From the NCBI RefSeq assembly GCF_037042905.1, contig NC_087250.1, positions 17,238,001 through 17,302,000 on the forward strand: a DNA stretch of 64,000 bases, written 5' to 3'. Under the pieces are notes generated by a model. That model was not told the origin of the DNA. It did not search any database and saw nothing but the letters and a program-made list of their open reading frames with translations. A program made the translations under genes and the position numbers. This document shows, one piece after another, positions 38,516 to 53,100 of this stretch. Every line of letters starts with the position of its first letter. Position 1 is the first letter of the stretch. This DNA comes from Lytechinus pictus (lineage: Eukaryota).

Positions 38516-39644
38516 GTCATGACAGTGGGTTCTTCGAGTTTTCAAATTAGTGTTACTAAAACATGCGTGTCTACTTTGCAATTTCATGCACGGATTTGTC
38601 TCCAAACTCTCTCTATGAATTTTGTTTTCCTGCATCTACTTACCAACAAGTATCCAGGGTAAATATTACAAAGGGGGTGATATATCCCTTTAAAAGCACG
38701 CGAAGCATCTCTAATGTCCAATTAGATTGATGAGTTTGGGGGCCCAACACCTAGCGTATGATATGGATGGAAGTCAACGGTGCATGAAGCCGAGGTAATT
38801 ATATACGGGAATTATAGGTGTTCAAAAACCGCAGGGTAACTGGGAATCTCATGGTATGTATATATGTGAAAAATAGCTTTTTGATAAATGGAATGATCGA
38901 GCTAGTATCGGTTTTTAAATTAGTAAAACGCCGTTTAAGTAAATCGCCGTTTAAGTAAATCGTACACACACATACACACACATATATATATATATATAGA
39001 TATATATATATATATATTAATATAATTAATATATATATATTAATATTCATACATACATAAATATTTTATACATGTATGTATCCACTCGGCATAGTATTGA
39101 GGTTTCCAAAACTACTCAATACCAAGGCGTGAAATTGCCGGTTGCAGACGAAGCAAGGTATGAATATATATTGCATTGTCATTGAGGCCGTATATATTCA
39201 GATATGATATAGGCCATGGTATTACAAATAGATTTAAATATATTTTTAAGATTATCAACATACTGCGTGTGTTTTAATATGCATGATAAGTGATAGTTTG
39301 ACATGAAAGGTACTGCATTCAAATATAAGTCATCTTAGAACAAATAGTTTGACAATGACGTTACAACACACAATCCAAAAGAATATTAAGCAATACATCA
39401 TATACATGCACCGTGGTAATATTTAAATTTAGTAAGTTAAACTTTTATAAGGTCTTGTACATAAGAATGCATGAATATATTACTGTTCAAAAAACGTCTT
39501 GACGTTTCATCGCCTGTGACTACTTCCGAAATTACAGGAGAGCTTTTCGTGTCAAAAGCCCAAAAGTTCATGCAAATGGCCATTCATGTATTACTGAGTA
39601 ATCACGATGTATAATCCAGACATTTTAAGGGATTGGGTGGCTAC

Positions 39645-39811
39645 TTATACCATGGTCACATTTGCTCTACGGCGGCCGTACGGCGAGTCGAAAACAGCCG
39701 TTTTATTAATTTTGATTCAAACCACCTTTATGAAGTTGGACAAAAAATGTTAAAACGGCTGTTTTCGACTCGCCGTACGGCCGCCGTAGAACAAATGTGA
39801 CCATGGTATAA
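39645..39811. mobile_element. Young hairpin MITE
   Basis: About 60-bp near-perfect TIR tataccatggtcacatttg.tctacggcggccgtacggcgagtcgaaaacagccgtttt and its complement. Confidence 0.9.
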
Positions 39812-39877
39812 CAACGCGGATTATTCCGTTTCGTTACAAAGGGAGCCCTTATATGAGGGTGGCACTTTTACCTTTAT

Positions 39878-40051
39878 GGGCGTTGTGGCGTGCGCCTGTA
39901 ATCCAAGCTGTGGGGAAGTTACAAATTGATGCAGAGGTTCGAGGTTCGAGCCCTGGTCACGTCTTTCGGATGGTGACGTTAAAGGTCGGTCCCAGACGTA
40001 AATAATCATATCTGATTGATACACGTCTGACAAAACTCAAATACACACACA
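39878..40051 (+). mobile_element. Short retroposon with 7SL/Alu-like head, B box, Deu-like core and (CA)n tail
   Basis: Head GGGCGTTGTGGCGTGCGCCTGTAATCCAAGCT; B box GGTTCGAGCCC at 39943-53; core TCTTTCGGATGGTGACGTTAAAGGTCGGTCCC; tail atacacacaca; flanking direct repeat tttatgg (39873-79 / 40052-58). Confidence 0.75.
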
Positions 40052-40112
40052 TTTATGGAACCTGTTGGACAAAGGGGGAGAGGGTAGTGGGTTGAACAGC
40101 TACATTTACACT

Positions 40113-41596
40113 CACTGGCGTAAATCCGTGTTGATGGGTGGGGGGATGACTGAAATATTTTGGCATTTTTTTTTGCAATCATGTTTTTAGATATGCAAGG
40201 AATTGCCATTGATATGTCCACAGTGGCGTACCGTGGGTCACGGCATTGGGGGGGGGGGGCGGCACCAACAAAAATTTTGAATCACTGAGTGAGTGCGCTA
40301 GTGAGCGCGCTCAGTTGCCAGTTATACTGACCTAATAGAGACATTTGAAGGACAATGTCATTAAACTGATATGTATCTCACTGATCAAATAATGCGAGCG
40401 CGAAGCGCGAGCTGAAATGTTTTTATATTCACACATAAAAAGGGACATTATAATCAAATTTGTGTAATCATGATAGGTACCTGTCTCACTAAACGATTCG
40501 AGCGCAAAGCGCGAGCTGAAAATTTAGATAATTCAGACCTGAAGTGGGGCATTCTAAGGTTTTTTTTGTAAGAATTAACTAGGACCATACGTATTTCATT
40601 AACCAAATGATGCGAGCGCGAAGCGCGAGCTGAAAATTTTTGATATTCAGATCATAAGGGACATTTTAAGGACTGATTTTAGGAATTTATGAAAAGCAGA
40701 CATATTTCACCAATCCACTTATGCGAACGTAATCACGGACAGGAAATGTTTCATATATACGAAGACCTTAACATGGGGCAATCACTATTTGATTCGTCAA
40801 AAAGAAGCATATGTCACTACATAAAACAATGATAACTCAAGTGCTAGGAAATATATTTGGTTTATACTGACTTGAAAACGGGATGTTTTAGTACAACAGG
40901 ATTATATATCACGTTAAACAGACAATGCGAGCACCAGGAACAATAAAGACGTAGGCCCTGGGCAAATTATGTTTCATAAAGTTATGATAAATATGTTTCT
41001 TATGTAATGTAACATAACATAATTATACTATAATATAACATTATAATGAATAATATTTTCTTTTTTCCCACTACGTTTCTCTTCCTTTCTCCCTCTTTTC
41101 TCCTTTCCCCTTTCCCCGCTTTTTTTTTTTGGTCAGCCGATGGGGGGGGGGGGAATGTGCCCCCCATGCCCCCCGTAGTTACGCCACTGTATGTCCATAT
41201 AGCAAATACCCCTCTAATATTATTTTATCTTTTTTACCCCATGATGGTTATTACATTAAAAAAATTTGACATTCCATCTTAATCCCTTCCCAAAGACCCC
41301 AACATTGATGAATTAGAAGAAACGGGGGTTTCTCTTCAATGTTATATAAGGACATAAGTATTTCGTTTGGAAATGGTGAGCTGGCTCTTTATTTGCATTT
41401 TATGATTCAATAATATTGTTTTATTTGTTAAGCGGTATTTTAGGAAGAATTTTCACCAATAAAACAATTATCTCTTGTGATTTTTTTTCCCATTTCTTTC
41501 GTAAAAAGTGGGGGGATGTTTGTACAGGCCATCCCCCCTCCTCGAAAAGTGGGGGGGATATATCCCCCACCCCCCCCCCCGGGATTTACGCCAGTG
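40113..41596. mobile_element. Composite hAT-like element copy 1 (outer CACTGGCGTAAATCC TIR; inner 40221-41189)
   Basis: Outer TIR cactggcgtaaatcc / ggatttacgccagtg. Inner TIR cagtggcgta / tacgccactg with TSD tatgtcca. Confidence 0.9.
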
Positions 41597-47503: not shown

Positions 47504-50121
47504 TGATTCAATTTTATTTCTGCACTCAGGCTACAAATATGCAACATAACATCTGGGTGGTACAATCAAGTTTTACAAAACAATTAAGCAATAGTCATAG
47601 TAAGCAATGAAAAATAAATATTAACAATAAGCAATATTCAATGAAAAGAAAATAACAGTTTAAACGAATGCAGGAGACCGCCATCGTGAGCGGTTAAGCT
47701 TGAAAATGATGGCGGCCTCGTAAAATGGTACATAAATGTCTTTCTTCATTGATCAAGTGGGTGCAATGCAGGTGCAGGTGCGGGTGAAGTAAAGGGCAGT
47801 TGAATAATTAACTTGAAGAGGGGGATGCATATGATTCGATGATTTTTCTTTTAATAGTGGCTTTAAGTGAGTATATTGTTGAACATGACTTAACGTTGTT
47901 TGGAAAATTGTTCCAAATATCAGGACCATAATGTCGAATTGATTTGTGAGTTATTAATAATTTAGGGTTGGTGAGATGAAGGTTTCCTGATGTGCGGGTT
48001 GGGTAGGAATGAACAGACCTGTTAAACCTAAACATATCATTAAAGGATGGAGGAAGTTGATTATTAAAATATTTGAACATAAAGATGGCTACTTGGATCG
48101 TATTGATATCAAAGATTTTTAAGGTTTTAAGTTTATGAAACAATGGGTTAGAATGAGCCAAGTAATGTGACCGTGTGCACATACGGATTGCTCTTTTTTG
48201 TAGTTTAAAGACAGAGTTTAGTTTGAAAGAACCACAATTTGCCCAGACGATATTACAATATGTTATATAAGGGAGGACTAATGAATTGTATAACAAGAAT
48301 AAAGTTTTGTCAGGAAGAGTGAATTTTAACTTGGAAATTATCCCAATACTTTTAGAAACGGACATCGTAACATGGTGTATGTGTTGATTCCAAGTCAAAG
48401 ATTCGTCCATAATTACACCTAAAAATTTAGATTGTTTTTTCTGTTCTAGGGGGGTGCCGTCAATGTTAATGTCAATCGGTGTGTTAATGTTATGGGAATG
48501 GTGTCTGAAATACATAAAATGTGTCTTTTTTGTATTAAGGGATAGTTTATTGGCTTTGAACCAGTTTGATACTTTATCAATTTCACGATTAACGATATTG
48601 GTTAATGAATTAAGGTCTCTATGAGAATAAAATATATTTGTGTCGTCGGCAAATAAAACGAAGGATAAAATAGAGGAGGTTGTAATAATGTCGTTAATGT
48701 AGAGTAAAAATAAAAGTGGGCCTAAAATGGAACCTTGAGGGACACCACATCGAACTAAAAGAGAATCAGAGTCGCAACTGTTAAAATTGACATATTGCCT
48801 TCGATTATTTAAGTAGTCTTTAAAAAATGAGAGACATTGACCTCGTATTCCATAATGGTTGAGTTTGGATAGTAAAATTTCATGGTTGAGGGTGTCAAAC
48901 GCTTTACTAAGATCGCAAAAAATGCCAATTACGTGTTCTTTGTTCGCTATGGCATTTGTTATTTTGTCATAAATTTGAAGTAATGCTAAGTCTGTTGAAT
49001 ATTTTTTTCTAAAACCATATTGATTACAATTTAGAATGTTATATTTGTTTATGAATTTATAAAGTCTTATGTAAACTATTTTTTCTAGAATTTTAGATAT
49101 TGTTGGAAGTAATGAAATGGGACGGTAATTACTTATTTCGTGAGGGTTGTCTTTTTTAAAAATCGGATTTACTTTTGCTATTTTGAATAAGTCTGGAAAA
49201 ACACCTTGAGATAGGGAGTTATTAAATATGTGAGTCAAAGGGCTGGCAAGAGGGTGAATTATTTGCTTAAGAAGAGACATGTTAATGCCATCGCAACCAG
49301 AAGATCTAGAATTATGAAGGGAACGAACAATAGTGATTATTTCGGAGGGGTTTGTTGGGGCTAAAAAAAGAGATTCTTGATTTGGATCTGAGAGGTAATC
49401 TGTAAAATGTGCGTTGGGACTATTAATTTTGTTTGCAAGCTCGGGCCCAATATTGGTAAAGAAAGAATTAAATGAGTTTGCATAATTAGTGGGATCAAGT
49501 ATTTCAGATCCATTGAGAGTGATTTTATCATTAGGTGGGGGGTGTGTTTTTGTACCCAACACTTCTTTGATAATTTTCCAAGTCGTATTTGTATTTCCAT
49601 TGGCATCGTTAATTTTATTAGCAAAGTGCAATTTTCGGGATATTCGAATTAATTTTGTTAGTTTATTACGATATATTTTATATTCTTTTAAAGAATCATC
49701 AGTTGGATTGCGTAAGTGATATTTATATAGGCGATTACGTGTCTGTATGGACTTCAGTAAACCTTTAGTTATCCAAGGATTTTTGGGTTTGTTACGTTGG
49801 TTTTTTACTTTACCTATAGGGATATTCTTTTCATAATAATGTTTTAATGTATTATTGAAGTTATTGTATGCAATATTGGGATTTACTTCATTATAAACAT
49901 CATCCCATTCTTCCAAAACTAGGTCTTGCTTCAGTAATTCTATATTTTGTTTAGATTCTTTACGATAAGTATATTCTTTGTTTGATTTGGGGAAAGAAAG
50001 TTTACATTCACAAGTTAAGAAAATAGGCAGGTGGTCCGAAACTTCAGAACATAAAATCCCTCCTGTGGCTTTGTTATTATGAACATTCGAAAATATGTTA
50101 TCAATCTGAGTTGATGAATTC
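47504..50121 (-). mobile_element. 5'-truncated CR1-group (Crack/L2-related) LINE
   Basis: Contains an uninterrupted ORF2 remnant, a 3'UTR and an AATAAAATTGAATC end. Flanked by aatat (47499-503 / 50122-26); host sequence is continuous across it. Confidence 0.9.
47808..50121 (-). CDS. LINE ORF2: C-terminal end of APE endonuclease plus reverse transcriptase
   Basis: Motifs IDNIF..SDHLP (APE end), YRPISLL, QYGFR, DLSKAFDT, GVPQGSILGPLLFLLYIND and FADDT. No stops over about 770 codons. Confidence 0.95.
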
Positions 50122-53100
50122 AATATGGTATACAGAGGTCTGTGGCGGCCATTTTTAATATCAAGATATAAATATTTTGTCAAAAAATGTTTTTTTCAGA
50201 GAGGATATCACTCCTGCAACACAATTACATACATTTTATAGCTAATTTGCTAGCAATTTTATGACTTTCATGGGTAAAATGCATATTTTGGCGGCCATAT
50301 TGGATTTTGCCAATTTGCGGAAAATGCTGAAGGTTACACGAGTGGCATCATTCATATTCGTAATCAGCACCCTCGAATTGACAAGAAACCATCAAAAAAT
50401 ATTGTATATATGAAAAAACAAGGTTATGCCCCTTCTATCCTGGACTATTAAGAATGTTCCTTAATGGGTACAATCAAACATTATGTAAACCAGTCCTTTG
50501 AAATATTAATAAGTAGCAAAATTGTGTAGATTGTGTTTCTCTCCCAAAAGAATCTTCTAGCATAATCTGTTCATCAATCAATGACAAACTAACGTTAAAT
50601 CCACGTTAAGTCAATCTTATCGACGTGCCAGTCCTTGAAAAATTATGATTGACATTTACTAATGTTACTTCGGGTTTTTGAAGAATGTGGTCTTCTGGAG
50701 GATTGAGAAGATGAACTAGAACTGCACTATTAACAGCTCTTCCATAGAGTGTTATCATCTCTAAGGGGGTAAACATAAGTGTGGGCAGGGTAAATGCTAG
50801 TCCAGTCGGCTATCCACGAACATGCCCGCTTTGATTAATGCATGGACTTACAGCGAATGATGAATGCCACCATTCTACGCCGTATTGTGAAATTCGATAA
50901 GGGGGCTCGGCAAACATTATTCATGCTGCCTTCGAGCAGGTACAGCAGCCGCCTCTGAGAGACGCGGGTTCGATTCCTTAAACCGAGGGAGCAAGTGAAT
51001 CTCAGTATATGAGAGGAGGTTTGTTATGGGAAATCGAATTAGTTCTTCCCATTATTAATATACATGTATTCTTATTTTGTCATTACCGTATGTTGTCTTT
51101 CTCTTTTTCACTGTTTCATGGTCCTCTTCCTCCTCCCGCGCTCTCCTCCGAAGCATTTTTTTTTATTCTTACGTCTCTTCTTCTTCATCCTTCTACAGTT
51201 TTATTATTCATCTTCTTCCTTTTCTTCTCCCTCTTCTTTACTTCGTCCTCCTTGTCTTCTTTCTTTTCTTCTTTTCCCCCCTTTTCTCCTACTCTGGCTT
51301 CTCCCCCTTCCCCTATTCCTCTTCTTTTTAATTCTTCTATTAATCTTTCTTTACGTCCACCCCCCCCCCCCCCATTGCACTTTTTTTTATTCTCTTCTTT
51401 ATGTTCCCCAGGCCTACCATGGACCTCCTTACATCTGCTTGTTAATTTTCGCTCTCATCCTTTCTCCCTCCTGTAGTTATTTTTTATTAATTTTTTTTTT
51501 AATACAGTCGTCCCTCTACTTCCTGATCTTCCTGATCATGCTTTATGCTCATCCTTTTTTTTTTAGAGGGGGTGTTGTTAAATCACTGACGTTGTCAGTA
51601 CCACCTTTTATAAATGAAGAGCTTGATTAAAAGGGGTTAATCTATTGTTTTTGTCCAAAATTGATTTAAAAAAAAAATAACTATATCTATTTTATACATG
51701 GGAATCAAATGCCCCATATCGCATTTGAAAATAGAATTGGGACGATTGGTAAAAATGAATTGCAAATTTAAGTTTTATTCCAAAAGGAGCTAAATCCAAT
51801 ACCGGGTCCTTTAAAATTGGTCTGTGCAAATTTTGATGAAAATAACATATTTTTACTTTTTTATGAATAATCGAAGATGATAGCACTATCATAATGTCCA
51901 AACAAAACAGCTGTGGATAAGGGAAAGTGGTGAATTTACAAAAAAAACAGAAAAACACCATTAGCTCCTTTTGGAATAAAACTCTTCAAATATGGCGTAG
52001 ATGTGCCAGTGCCTGTATGGAAGAAATGCTCGTGAAATTCATGGACATGAAATTAAACAAGTGAGAGATGAGGGGGGATGGGTTGATCAGAATTCCGCGG
52101 TAACGCAATAATGGCAATGACAAATATTGAGGTTAGCTTCGCGGTAATATTGGAAAGATGTTTATTAGATTGTGAGGTAATAAGAGACACCTAGGCCTCC
52201 CCTGCACATCGCATCTCGGCTTATCCTCTATCTTTAACCATTCTACATCTCTTTTTCCTCTTTTCTTCAAGGACACCCAACAGATTGAATGCACTTTTTA
52301 TTCCATGTATACCCCAACAATATGATATAGTAATCATATTGATAATACTGATAATATCTTATTCAACGGAGGTAACCATCCCATCTCTTGCGATCAGTAC
52401 GGCTCTCCTATAACGGGCCTTGCATAACAAAAAGGGTTGTTACTAATACACTCGATTTTGATGCCGAGCGCCAGGCTAGAAAGACAGAGGACTCGTTTTC
52501 AAAGTCTTTTGGTATGACTTGCTCAACGATCGACCCAACAACTTCCTATTTCTCGTGGCACGCCAGGCTCTACCGATTAAATTGAATTCATTTATTTTCC
52601 GTTAAAAAACATGTAAAATCAAGAATATACAAACATTACAAAGTATAGAAATGAGACATTATACAAATGAGGTATCATACTTTAAATAAATGCAAAATAC
52701 TTCGTTTTATATATACATATTAAGAAAATCGGATGCCCGTGGAAGCAGTATGCTTGTAGGGTTGGGTCACCCAGAACATGTCACCTTTCAGATAAAAACA
52801 AGAATTTCAACTCTTTAAACAAATTTTGGGAAATCAGAAGAGGGGAAAGTGTATAGAATGTATCACATTTTAGATGTTATTTCTCACTTCTCAACTATGC
52901 CGAGTGCTAATCCATGAAGTGATTAAAATAATTTTGGACAATCTGTAAAAATAAGTTACTCTTTTAAGCTACTGATTTAGTAAGACTTCTGGTTTTATGC
53001 GAAGTATTAATTAGGTAAAAAAGGTAAGCCATTATCCTATCAACATGTCAAATGTTAATTGTTTTCAGCCGGGAACGAGTTCTAGGAAGCCGTCTGAAAA

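Follow-up and report, generated by a model that had tools for sequence, protein, structure and literature searches.

A 175-bp short interspersed element (SINE) found in Lytechinus pictus DNA carries, at its head, a piece of the host's own 7SL RNA. The element lies in a window of 64,000 nt, by which we mean the whole stretch of DNA that was analysed; coordinates of the element are given in window numbering, on the + strand. Alignment identifies the first 45 nt of the family as copied from the 5′ end of the host 7SL RNA, and only that 5′ domain is 7SL; the B box of the RNA polymerase III (Pol III) promoter is not 7SL-derived. The family numbers ~1,600–1,700 copies, is young, with many copies 100% identical, and is active or very recently active. 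We consider it very probable that this is a composite SINE whose 7SL head was gained by template switching onto a Deu-type SINE, and whose spread is driven by Pol III and a long interspersed element (LINE).

The reference for the head was the set of native 7SL genes of the host, in place of the Alu/7SL sequence with which a 29/32 match had been counted in the original prediction, a model's description of the same DNA. The genome searched, an 811.7-Mb assembly of 368 contigs, holds seven full 7SL genes (272–283 bits): three on C10, three on C1 and one on C12. Six of these open with ACCGGGCGTTGTGGCGTGCGCCTGTAATCCAGCTAC, and the C12 gene (L037) opens with ACTGGGCG, continuing AGCTGCTTTGGAAGT. The C12 gene and the SINE share the diagnostic ACTGGG and GGAAGT, and a 100%-identical representative copy of the SINE matches this gene in 42 of 46 columns, with SINE nt 1–45 aligned to 7SL nt 1–45. 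The score of this alignment, 70, lies 22 standard deviations above the mean of 200 shuffles (mean 17.7, standard deviation 2.4, maximum 28). Identity between the SINE head and host 7SL is uninterrupted over 28 nt, and the match to a C10 7SL gene extends to 33 of 35 columns. Full-length copies open with (A)ACTGGGCG (the 5′ end of the family can also be written (A)ACUGGGCG), which puts the start of the element at the 5′ end of 7SL RNA or one base away from it; among 63 full copies with distinct flanks, AAC stands before TGGGCG in 32 and AC in 44. Older subfamilies read AGCTACGTGG or AGCTATGTGG and are nearer to the 7SL AGCTACTTGG than is the youngest subfamily. Consistent with these alignments, the Rfam family Metazoa_SRP (SRP, signal recognition particle) matches 39877–39917 at model positions 3–42 with 22.5 bits (E 0.0026), a score under the gathering score of 70, as expected because the head is a fragment only. 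The Alu-related Rfam family mir-1268 also matches the head, with 33 bits.

Beyond the first 45 nt, the likeness to 7SL ends. When the SINE past nt ~45 is compared with the remaining 7SL, the scores are 15 and 14 against shuffle means of 15.5 and 15.2, and 191 and 251 of 300 shuffles score equally or better. The Alu-domain layout, in which the 5′ and 3′ ends of 7SL are joined after a deletion of ~183 nt, was not found in the sea urchin SINE. With Infernal, an older subfamily does span Metazoa_SRP model positions 1–299 in Alu style, with 221 positions skipped (34.3 bits, E 2e-07); the fit of its 3′ strand is weak, being driven by structure, with few identities and 8 non-standard pairs. A degenerate tRNA-derived head, resembling 7SL by convergence around the Pol III A box, would agree with the tRNA-like B box (GGTTCGAGCCC) and with the relatives from other RNA runs described below, which carry non-7SL sequence upstream. 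Indeed, the A boxes of 7SL and tRNA resemble each other. Against such a head stand the 28 straight identities and the 42 of 46 columns, which include lineage-specific bases and the exact 5′ end of the RNA. Furthermore, ARAGORN finds 0 tRNA genes in the element, and no tRNA family is among the nine Rfam matches at E ≤ 10 in 39000–41000 or among those of the older subfamily, as opposed to the Metazoa_SRP match of the latter. A tRNA origin of the head is thus effectively refuted, and the head aligns to native 7SL and to no tRNA, as the original prediction would have it. Only the B box is tRNA-like; the tRNA-derivative head by which SINE2 elements are defined is missing, and no tRNA genes that might have supplied the B box lie beside the 7SL genes.

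The 7SL genes have a peculiarity of their own. In six of them (L031, L032, L033, L034, L035 and L036) a B-box-like GGTTCGAGTC occurs 16–40 nt past the T-run and is followed by AGGTGTC and a second T-run; it is not present in the C12 gene L037, whose sequence comes nearest to the SINE head. The downstream GGTTCGAGTC may be a TFIIIC site or a sign of a longer primary transcript.

A DNA search with 39873–40058 returned 1,687 first-look candidates, and 40 of these were scored, with 43 scored matches, almost all of them 99–100% identical. Because the matches span query positions 5–179, the unit was set at 39877–40051. Whole-genome pattern searches allowing up to 3 mismatches gave 1,577 matches for a 25-mer of the head, 1,699 for a 30-mer of the core (849 forward against 850 reverse) and 1,353 for a 34-mer of the tail; no match was returned by the reversed-pattern controls. 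The head 25-mer takes in the SINE-specific CCAAGCT; the true 7SL genes differ from it at 4 positions and are thus left out of the count. By these patterns the element is multi-copy, not single-copy, and dozens of the copies are 100% identical. Of 20 loci that had only the head or only the core among the exact matches listed, 16 held an unbroken full-length copy with additional mismatches, 2 a copy interrupted by insertions and 2 a 5′-truncated copy, so head and body go together. A 7-bp duplication in the B box marks the youngest subfamily: it is found in 29 of 29 examined copies at ≥99% identity and is missing from most older ones, and in RNA reads 7 nt at 39934 are skipped in 354 of 872 and 305 of 813 cases.

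Several properties of the copies are those of retroposition. Their flanks are unrelated to each other. Under a rule that required an exact match with an offset of at most 6 nt on the left, target-site duplications (TSDs) of at least 5 bp (range 5–14 bp) occur in 20 of the 63 full copies, compared with 1 of 63 in a control that paired left and right flanks of different copies; for TSDs of at least 7 bp the figures are 8 and 0. Twenty further loci were fetched that were among the exact tail-pattern matches listed and absent from the listed head and core matches. They held 10 full-length copies, 3 copies starting at nt 7, 20 and 33, 6 starting at nt 78–86 and 1 starting at nt 129. The DNA upstream of 5′-truncated copies is unrelated, at times with a few bases of microhomology, and one further truncated copy has a 13-bp TSD. 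The element is therefore a retroposed unit of ~175 bp, as had been proposed, and its copies have individual flanks and TSDs. It is short, dispersed, of high copy number and inserted at independent sites, as a SINE should be, and the TSDs, the 5′ truncations and the variable (CA)n are signs of target-primed reverse transcription.

The truncations at nt 78–86 (L068, L069, L070, L071, L075 and L079) fall at the border of head and core, and in two of them the flank repeats bases of the core; this cluster may mark a strong stop to reverse transcription, or a site at which joining is favoured.

If the element were a satellite or tandem repeat, or were carried by another mobile element, some of the arrangements observed would be explained, namely four tandem units at C19:10865243–10865948, 175-bp joints in 13 RNA reads at which the alignment goes back, and dimers that lie, each time with the same flanks, within a larger repeated unit at six or more loci. 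Most copies, however, are solitary and have unique flanks, variable (CA)n, TSDs and 5′ truncations, and their orientations are balanced, which makes this explanation very unlikely. The dimers belong to an older subfamily (AGCTACGTGG, with a GAATCC B box), found as dimer or monomer inside the larger unit at at least six loci (L039, L040, L041 and L042, plus C18, C5, C2, C4 and C7 twice), where it is carried along by another repeat or by a segmental duplication.

Behind the B box lies the core, which in the original prediction was likened to the Deu domain. Statements attributed here and below to published work refer to the portions of each source that were available. Counted by eye, ~30 of 42 columns agree between the core and the Deu part of BivaMD-SINE1 as printed in the supplement of PMC4824008, the matching pieces being GTCACG, the 11-mer TCTTTCGGATG, AC, TTAAA and GGTCCC; past GGTCCC the same comparison revealed no likeness. 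According to that paper, BivaMD-SINE1 carries 110 bp of the Deu domain, which is 330 bp long in vertebrates and is represented in invertebrate members by a ~120-bp Nin part or by ~70 bp (PMC4824008). The Deu-likeness of the core is thus best described as a short (~40 nt), partial resemblance judged by eye: the predicted likeness appears to hold for the start of the Deu/Nin domain and is not seen in the rest of it.

The head–body junction is fixed across the genome. Genome-wide patterns in which one part adjoins a neighbour foreign to the family gave 1 match for the core behind a non-family 3-mer (a truncated copy), 2 for the hairpin behind a non-family 3-mer and 2 for the head followed by a non-family dinucleotide (both GGTTCGAAT variants), so the copies share one head–core junction. 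Words of the element are also partly present in two other RNA runs, X15 and X16, labelled ‘sea urchin metagenome’ and ‘echinoderm metagenome’. Four more runs, X17–X20 (marine, estuary and fish metagenomes), share 0.23–0.31 of the words and were given no weight. Contigs from these runs match only from 39943 or 39956 to 40019–40048, that is, the end of the B box, the core and the hairpin. Upstream of the match, another consensus sequence is found in 14 contigs of X15 and 12 of X16 (those of X16 with a GGTTCGAA motif), and the tails of the contigs diverge past 40029/40037. In one X16 contig the 7SL head is present as far as 39939, after which the sequence departs from it; this single contig was not used. 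Taken together, the fixed junction and the occurrence of the body behind other sequence suggest that the core–hairpin module is older and wider in distribution than the 7SL head, and that the head was joined to it once, in the Lytechinus pictus lineage. These two observations therefore support the predicted swap of a 7SL head onto a Deu-type SINE.

We propose the following course of events. A LINE reverse transcriptase working on the RNA of an older Deu-type SINE would have copied the tail, the core and the B box, then switched template to 7SL RNA at about nt 45 and run to its 5′ end, whereby the A-box half of the old head would have been replaced by the 7SL piece. The chimera would keep a Pol III promoter, its A-box-like element now supplied by 7SL and its B box retained from the old head. 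It could then have become a master copy and spread to about 1,600–1,700 copies, and the later 7-bp B-box duplication would mark the currently most successful subfamily. Pol III would transcribe the element from its internal type-2 promoter, a LINE reverse transcriptase of the stringent type would recognise the 3′ hairpin with the ACA/CA-repeat end, and target-primed reverse transcription would yield the short or absent TSDs and the 5′ truncations. The 45-nt piece represents the 5′ domain of the SRP Alu domain, the minimal binder of SRP9/14, and ribosome docking as proposed for Alu might be possible through it. The start at the 5′ end of 7SL RNA, combined with a single switch point upstream of the B box, is what a template switch would be expected to leave. 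Moreover, template switching has been invoked to explain the composite heads of 5S plus partial tRNA in vertebrate DeuSINEs (PMC4824008).

The main rival to RNA template switching is an origin at the DNA level, at a 7SL locus. Here, a truncated Deu-type SINE would have inserted in, or recombined with, a 7SL gene or pseudogene at ~nt 45 and given rise to a master gene, driven by the 7SL upstream promoter together with the internal one. Old-type SINE copies (81–91% identity, single B box) do end ~36 bp upstream of each of the clustered C10 7SL genes, and 5′-truncated SINE copies are common, with a cluster at nt 83–86. The junction, however, precedes the B box, at SINE nt ~45/46, and lies away from the common truncation point. 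Furthermore, an exact genome-wide pattern for the 7SL-type upstream motif (TCCTTANTTT, 12–18 nt, ACTGGGCGTTGTGG) finds the C12 7SL gene only, and no SINE copy. Full-length copies that start at the 5′ end of 7SL RNA (AAC/AC) are predicted by both models alike. On this evidence a DNA-level origin appears unlikely, though clearly less so than the alternatives treated above. The C10 copies themselves lie at ~1292–1465 in L031, ~1296–1465 in L035 and ~1317–1465 in L036, just before the conserved 7SL upstream motif, and the insertion is thus older than the duplications that gave rise to these clustered genes.

Some observations weigh against the template-switch origin and LINE-driven spread proposed here. 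DNA-level recombination stands as an alternative to RNA template switching. The head swap is deduced from contigs of two other runs and not from a sibling family in the genome: no family that joins this exact core to a different head was found there, and the ancestor is seen only in the contigs of those runs. Under the strict exact-match rule, 43 of the 63 full copies have no TSD. In the youngest subfamily the second C of the helix-4 loop is gone (AGCTGTGG), a loss that speaks against strong selection to keep the SRP9/14-binding fold intact. In RNA sequencing a discrete Pol III transcript is not apparent: coverage is the same on the two strands, 82% of the aligned reads continue into unlike flanks, and there are no peaks of read starts or ends. 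Finally, a search with exact junction patterns and ~300 kb of sampled DNA, which may have missed one, revealed no LINE whose 3′ end matches.

As regards transcription, the consensus B box GGTTCGAGCCC and the A-box-like TGGCGTGCGCC form a predicted Pol III promoter with Alu-like spacing, although TGGCGTGCGCC fits only the first half of the A-box consensus. Host RNA reads cover 39877–40056 and nothing beyond, and have loose ends of low agreement at both borders, as expected because the many copies lie in different contexts. The RNA-seq libraries see passenger copies within longer transcripts, and Pol III transcripts are neither shown nor ruled out by them; the null result is weak evidence because cDNA libraries hardly capture a Pol III RNA of 175 nt.

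The 3′ end of the element was used to look for the mobilising LINE. SINEs with stringent-type LINE partners (L2/CR1-type pairs), for which the eel SINE/LINE pair is cited as an example (PMC7245038), typically show TSDs that are short or missing, 5′-truncated copies, a structured 3′ end and a terminus like a microsatellite. In the element, the 3′ hairpin is found in the minimum free energy and centroid folds alike; the RNA fold of the element as a whole is nothing unusual (z −0.70), and only local hairpins stand out. The 20 tail-pattern loci were all SINE copies, full-length or 5′-truncated, with no common upstream element, and no reverse transcriptase open reading frame was found upstream of the shortest truncated copy. 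A pattern of the last 19 nt preceded by a non-SINE neighbour was matched 51 times, 46 of them by an A5 tail variant of the SINE; three of the other five were inspected and proved to be two SINE copies with deletions and one abutting an unrelated abundant element that ends GACTGACTGA. A short-word BLAST of the tail against the sampled DNA added nothing new. Since no LINE was found, the partner that mobilises the element is an inferred one, and so is the function of the hairpin as a putative recognition element for the reverse transcriptase of that LINE.

Two other repeats were met in this search. At L085 (G000:C14:4447300–4447760) a 25-nt piece of the SINE tail abuts the end of an unrelated abundant young repeat, which ends GGGCTTGCGGACTGACTGA and has 1,556 first-look candidates at 98–99% identity. 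The window also contains a non-LTR retrotransposon at 47808–50195 on the minus strand, with a 795-aa open frame and an RVT_1 domain (119.6 bits); it was rejected as the partner, its 3′ end (towards 47500) being unlike the SINE tail.

The copy in the window (Table 1) belongs to the youngest subfamily. It opens with TGGGCGTTGTGGCGTGCGCCTGTAATCCAAGCT and continues with the duplicated B box, the TCTTTCGGATGGTGACGTTAAAGGTCGGTCCC segment (39962–39993), the hairpin and the CTCAAATA(CA)n end. The consensus B box occupies 39943–39953, with the 7-bp duplicate directly before it at 39936–39942. The stretch GGGCG...AAGCT is at 39878–39909, and a 20-mer of the head has a single occurrence in the window and was never seen in 100 shuffles. 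The sequence had been described correctly in all its parts (head, B box, core segment, (CA)n end at 40051 and tttatgg repeats), and two readings of it needed amendment. The supposed 7-bp TSD is indeed tttatgg on both sides, but the true duplication is 4 bp (ttta) plus a 3-nt overlap, TGG, with the element. The head was placed properly, but the true 5′ end of the family is (A)AC-TGGGCG, and the copy in the window is short of it by 2–3 nt (AAC/AC).

Table 1. Parts of the SINE copy and its direct repeats, in window coordinates; nt numbers refer to the element.
Feature	Position	Strand	Remarks
SINE copy, 175 bp	39877..40051	+	Other genomic copies 99–100% identical over query 5–179; RNA-read depth confined to 39877–40056
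5′ direct-repeat copy, tttatgg	39873..39879	+	Only ttta unambiguously target; TGG also the first three bases of the element here
3′ direct-repeat copy, tttatgg	40052..40058	+	
7SL-derived head	39877..39919	+	Corresponds to 7SL RNA nt 3–45; 5′ part of Alu domain, helices 2–4 and UGUAA turn
A-box-like TGGCGTGCGCC	39886..39896	+	Position matches 7SL/Alu A box; putative role
Spacer TACAAATTGATGCAGA	39920..39935 (nt ~46–59)	+	7SL similarity not above shuffles; no tRNA call
B-box region: GGTTCGA duplicated, then GGTTCGAGCCC	39936..39953 (nt 60–77)	+	
Deu/Nin-like core segment (GTCACG TCTTTCGGATG ... TTAAA ... GGTCCC)	39956..39993 (nt 80–117)	+	By-eye comparison; kept in X15/X16 contigs
3′ hairpin	39993..40029 (nt 117–153)	+	37 nt; 7-bp outer stem CAGACGT/ACGTCTG, 6-bp inner stem
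Family-specific terminal tail ACAAAACTCAAATA(CA)n	40030..40051 (last 22 nt)	+	(CA)n length differs among copies

Just upstream of the SINE, a near-perfect inverted repeat of ~150 bp (ccatggtcacatttg...ctacggcggccgtacggcgagtcgaaaacagccgtttta and its reverse complement) at 39650–39800 looks like a miniature inverted-repeat transposable element or a foldback element. It has sub-threshold matches to Rfam miRNA precursors (mir-2131, 44.2 bits against a gathering score of 92). Elsewhere in the genome, a bindin gene (Pfam PF02084) was located at G000:C13:14344741–14346105, in two adjacent exons (236.7 and 53.1 bits), and in 0 of 14 control genomes; bindin is an echinoid sperm protein, and its gene confirms that the host is a sea urchin.

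How does the sea urchin SINE compare with known 7SL SINEs? These have been stated to be confined to supraprimates and hagfish (Kojima 2020, PMC7245038), and a later account, reaching to February 2026, lists supraprimates, hagfish and the shrew mole (Kosushkin et al. 2026, PMC13023118). The restriction to supraprimates (Alu/B1) and hagfish assumed in the original prediction thus stands once the shrew mole is added. According to the latter source, all known 7SL SINEs join the 5′ and 3′ ends of 7SL after a central deletion of ~183 nt. Alu, B1, Tu and Urop have the same 5′ 7SL domain as the sea urchin SINE, in which an A-box-like element and the UGUAA turn are found, and likewise have a B box ~50–60 nt downstream, but they have the ~183-nt central deletion, keep the 3′ strand of the Alu domain, have a poly-A tail and use L1 (PMC13023118); in the sea urchin SINE a 3′ 7SL strand is without sequence support, and the tail consists of a hairpin and (CA)n. 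The hagfish SINE1-1_EBu (Ebu1-1) is similar in having an independent, non-mammalian 7SL head, in being young and in ending with a non-poly-A tail that terminates in a short repeat and is, in hagfish, LINE-specific (PMC7245038). Its copy number, 2,363 as quoted in PMC13023118, is also similar. It differs in having both ends of 7SL after the central deletion and an RTE-derived bipartite (AAC)n tail, whereas the sea urchin SINE has 7SL nt 1–45 only, a non-7SL B box and a Deu/Nin-like core.

In architecture, the closest analogues lie among the DeuSINEs. Composite heads of 5S rRNA and partial tRNA in SINE3/AmnSINE1-type elements were reportedly described by Nishihara in 2006. DeuSINEs of this type, which are the nearest parallel also in the presumed mode of origin, combine a piece of a non-tRNA small RNA, the B-box part of an older tRNA-type head and a Deu core, but their donor RNA is 5S rRNA and their Deu domain measures ~330 bp as opposed to ~40 nt in the sea urchin SINE (PMC4824008). 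A precedent for mixing 7SL and tRNA in one unit is provided by part of the mammalian L1-dependent multimers, which come from the supraprimate 7SL lineage. The named sea urchin SINEs, namely SINE2-1/2_SP (Meta), SINE2-3_SP (Deu/Nin) and SINE2-4c_SP (CORE), are all SINE2 (PMC5804259, PMC4824008). SINE2-3_SP shares the host group and, judging by the partial likeness of the core, apparently the core superfamily with our element and is set apart by its description, in which a tRNA-derived head is reported; a relationship to the ancestral body is plausible. No 7SL SINE of a sea urchin or any echinoderm was found in the literature up to 2026, the repeat catalogues Repbase, Dfam and SINEBase lying outside that search, and the family may sit in one of these under a SINE2 or unclassified name. 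On balance, we favour the view that a 7SL-headed SINE arose here independently, as the first such SINE in an invertebrate, when only the 45-nt 5′ domain of 7SL was grafted on the B-box half of a Deu-type SINE, and that the family is still amplifying.

The sea urchin SINE has a composite head, a non-mammalian tail and a 7SL head built differently from those described. 7SL SINEs include Alu, the most studied SINE, and are regarded by specialists as extraordinarily rare (PMC13023118). With only the 5′ domain of 7SL, joined to a B box taken from elsewhere, a core that resembles Deu and a tail other than poly-A, the family would be a natural experiment that bears on which part of 7SL counts for the success of a SINE: the promoter, SRP9/14 binding with ribosome docking, or neither. 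It also offers a case of template-switch head replacement that is dated and resolved into subfamilies, if that origin is correct, in an animal that is a tractable embryo system and holds many identical copies; its importance is mainly for the biology of transposable elements and moderate beyond it. If the origin proposed here is true, a minimal 7SL 5′ domain, comprising an A box and the SRP9/14-binding turn, would be enough to found a SINE together with a non-L1, hairpin-recognising LINE, and the central-deletion architecture of all described 7SL SINEs would not be a requirement.

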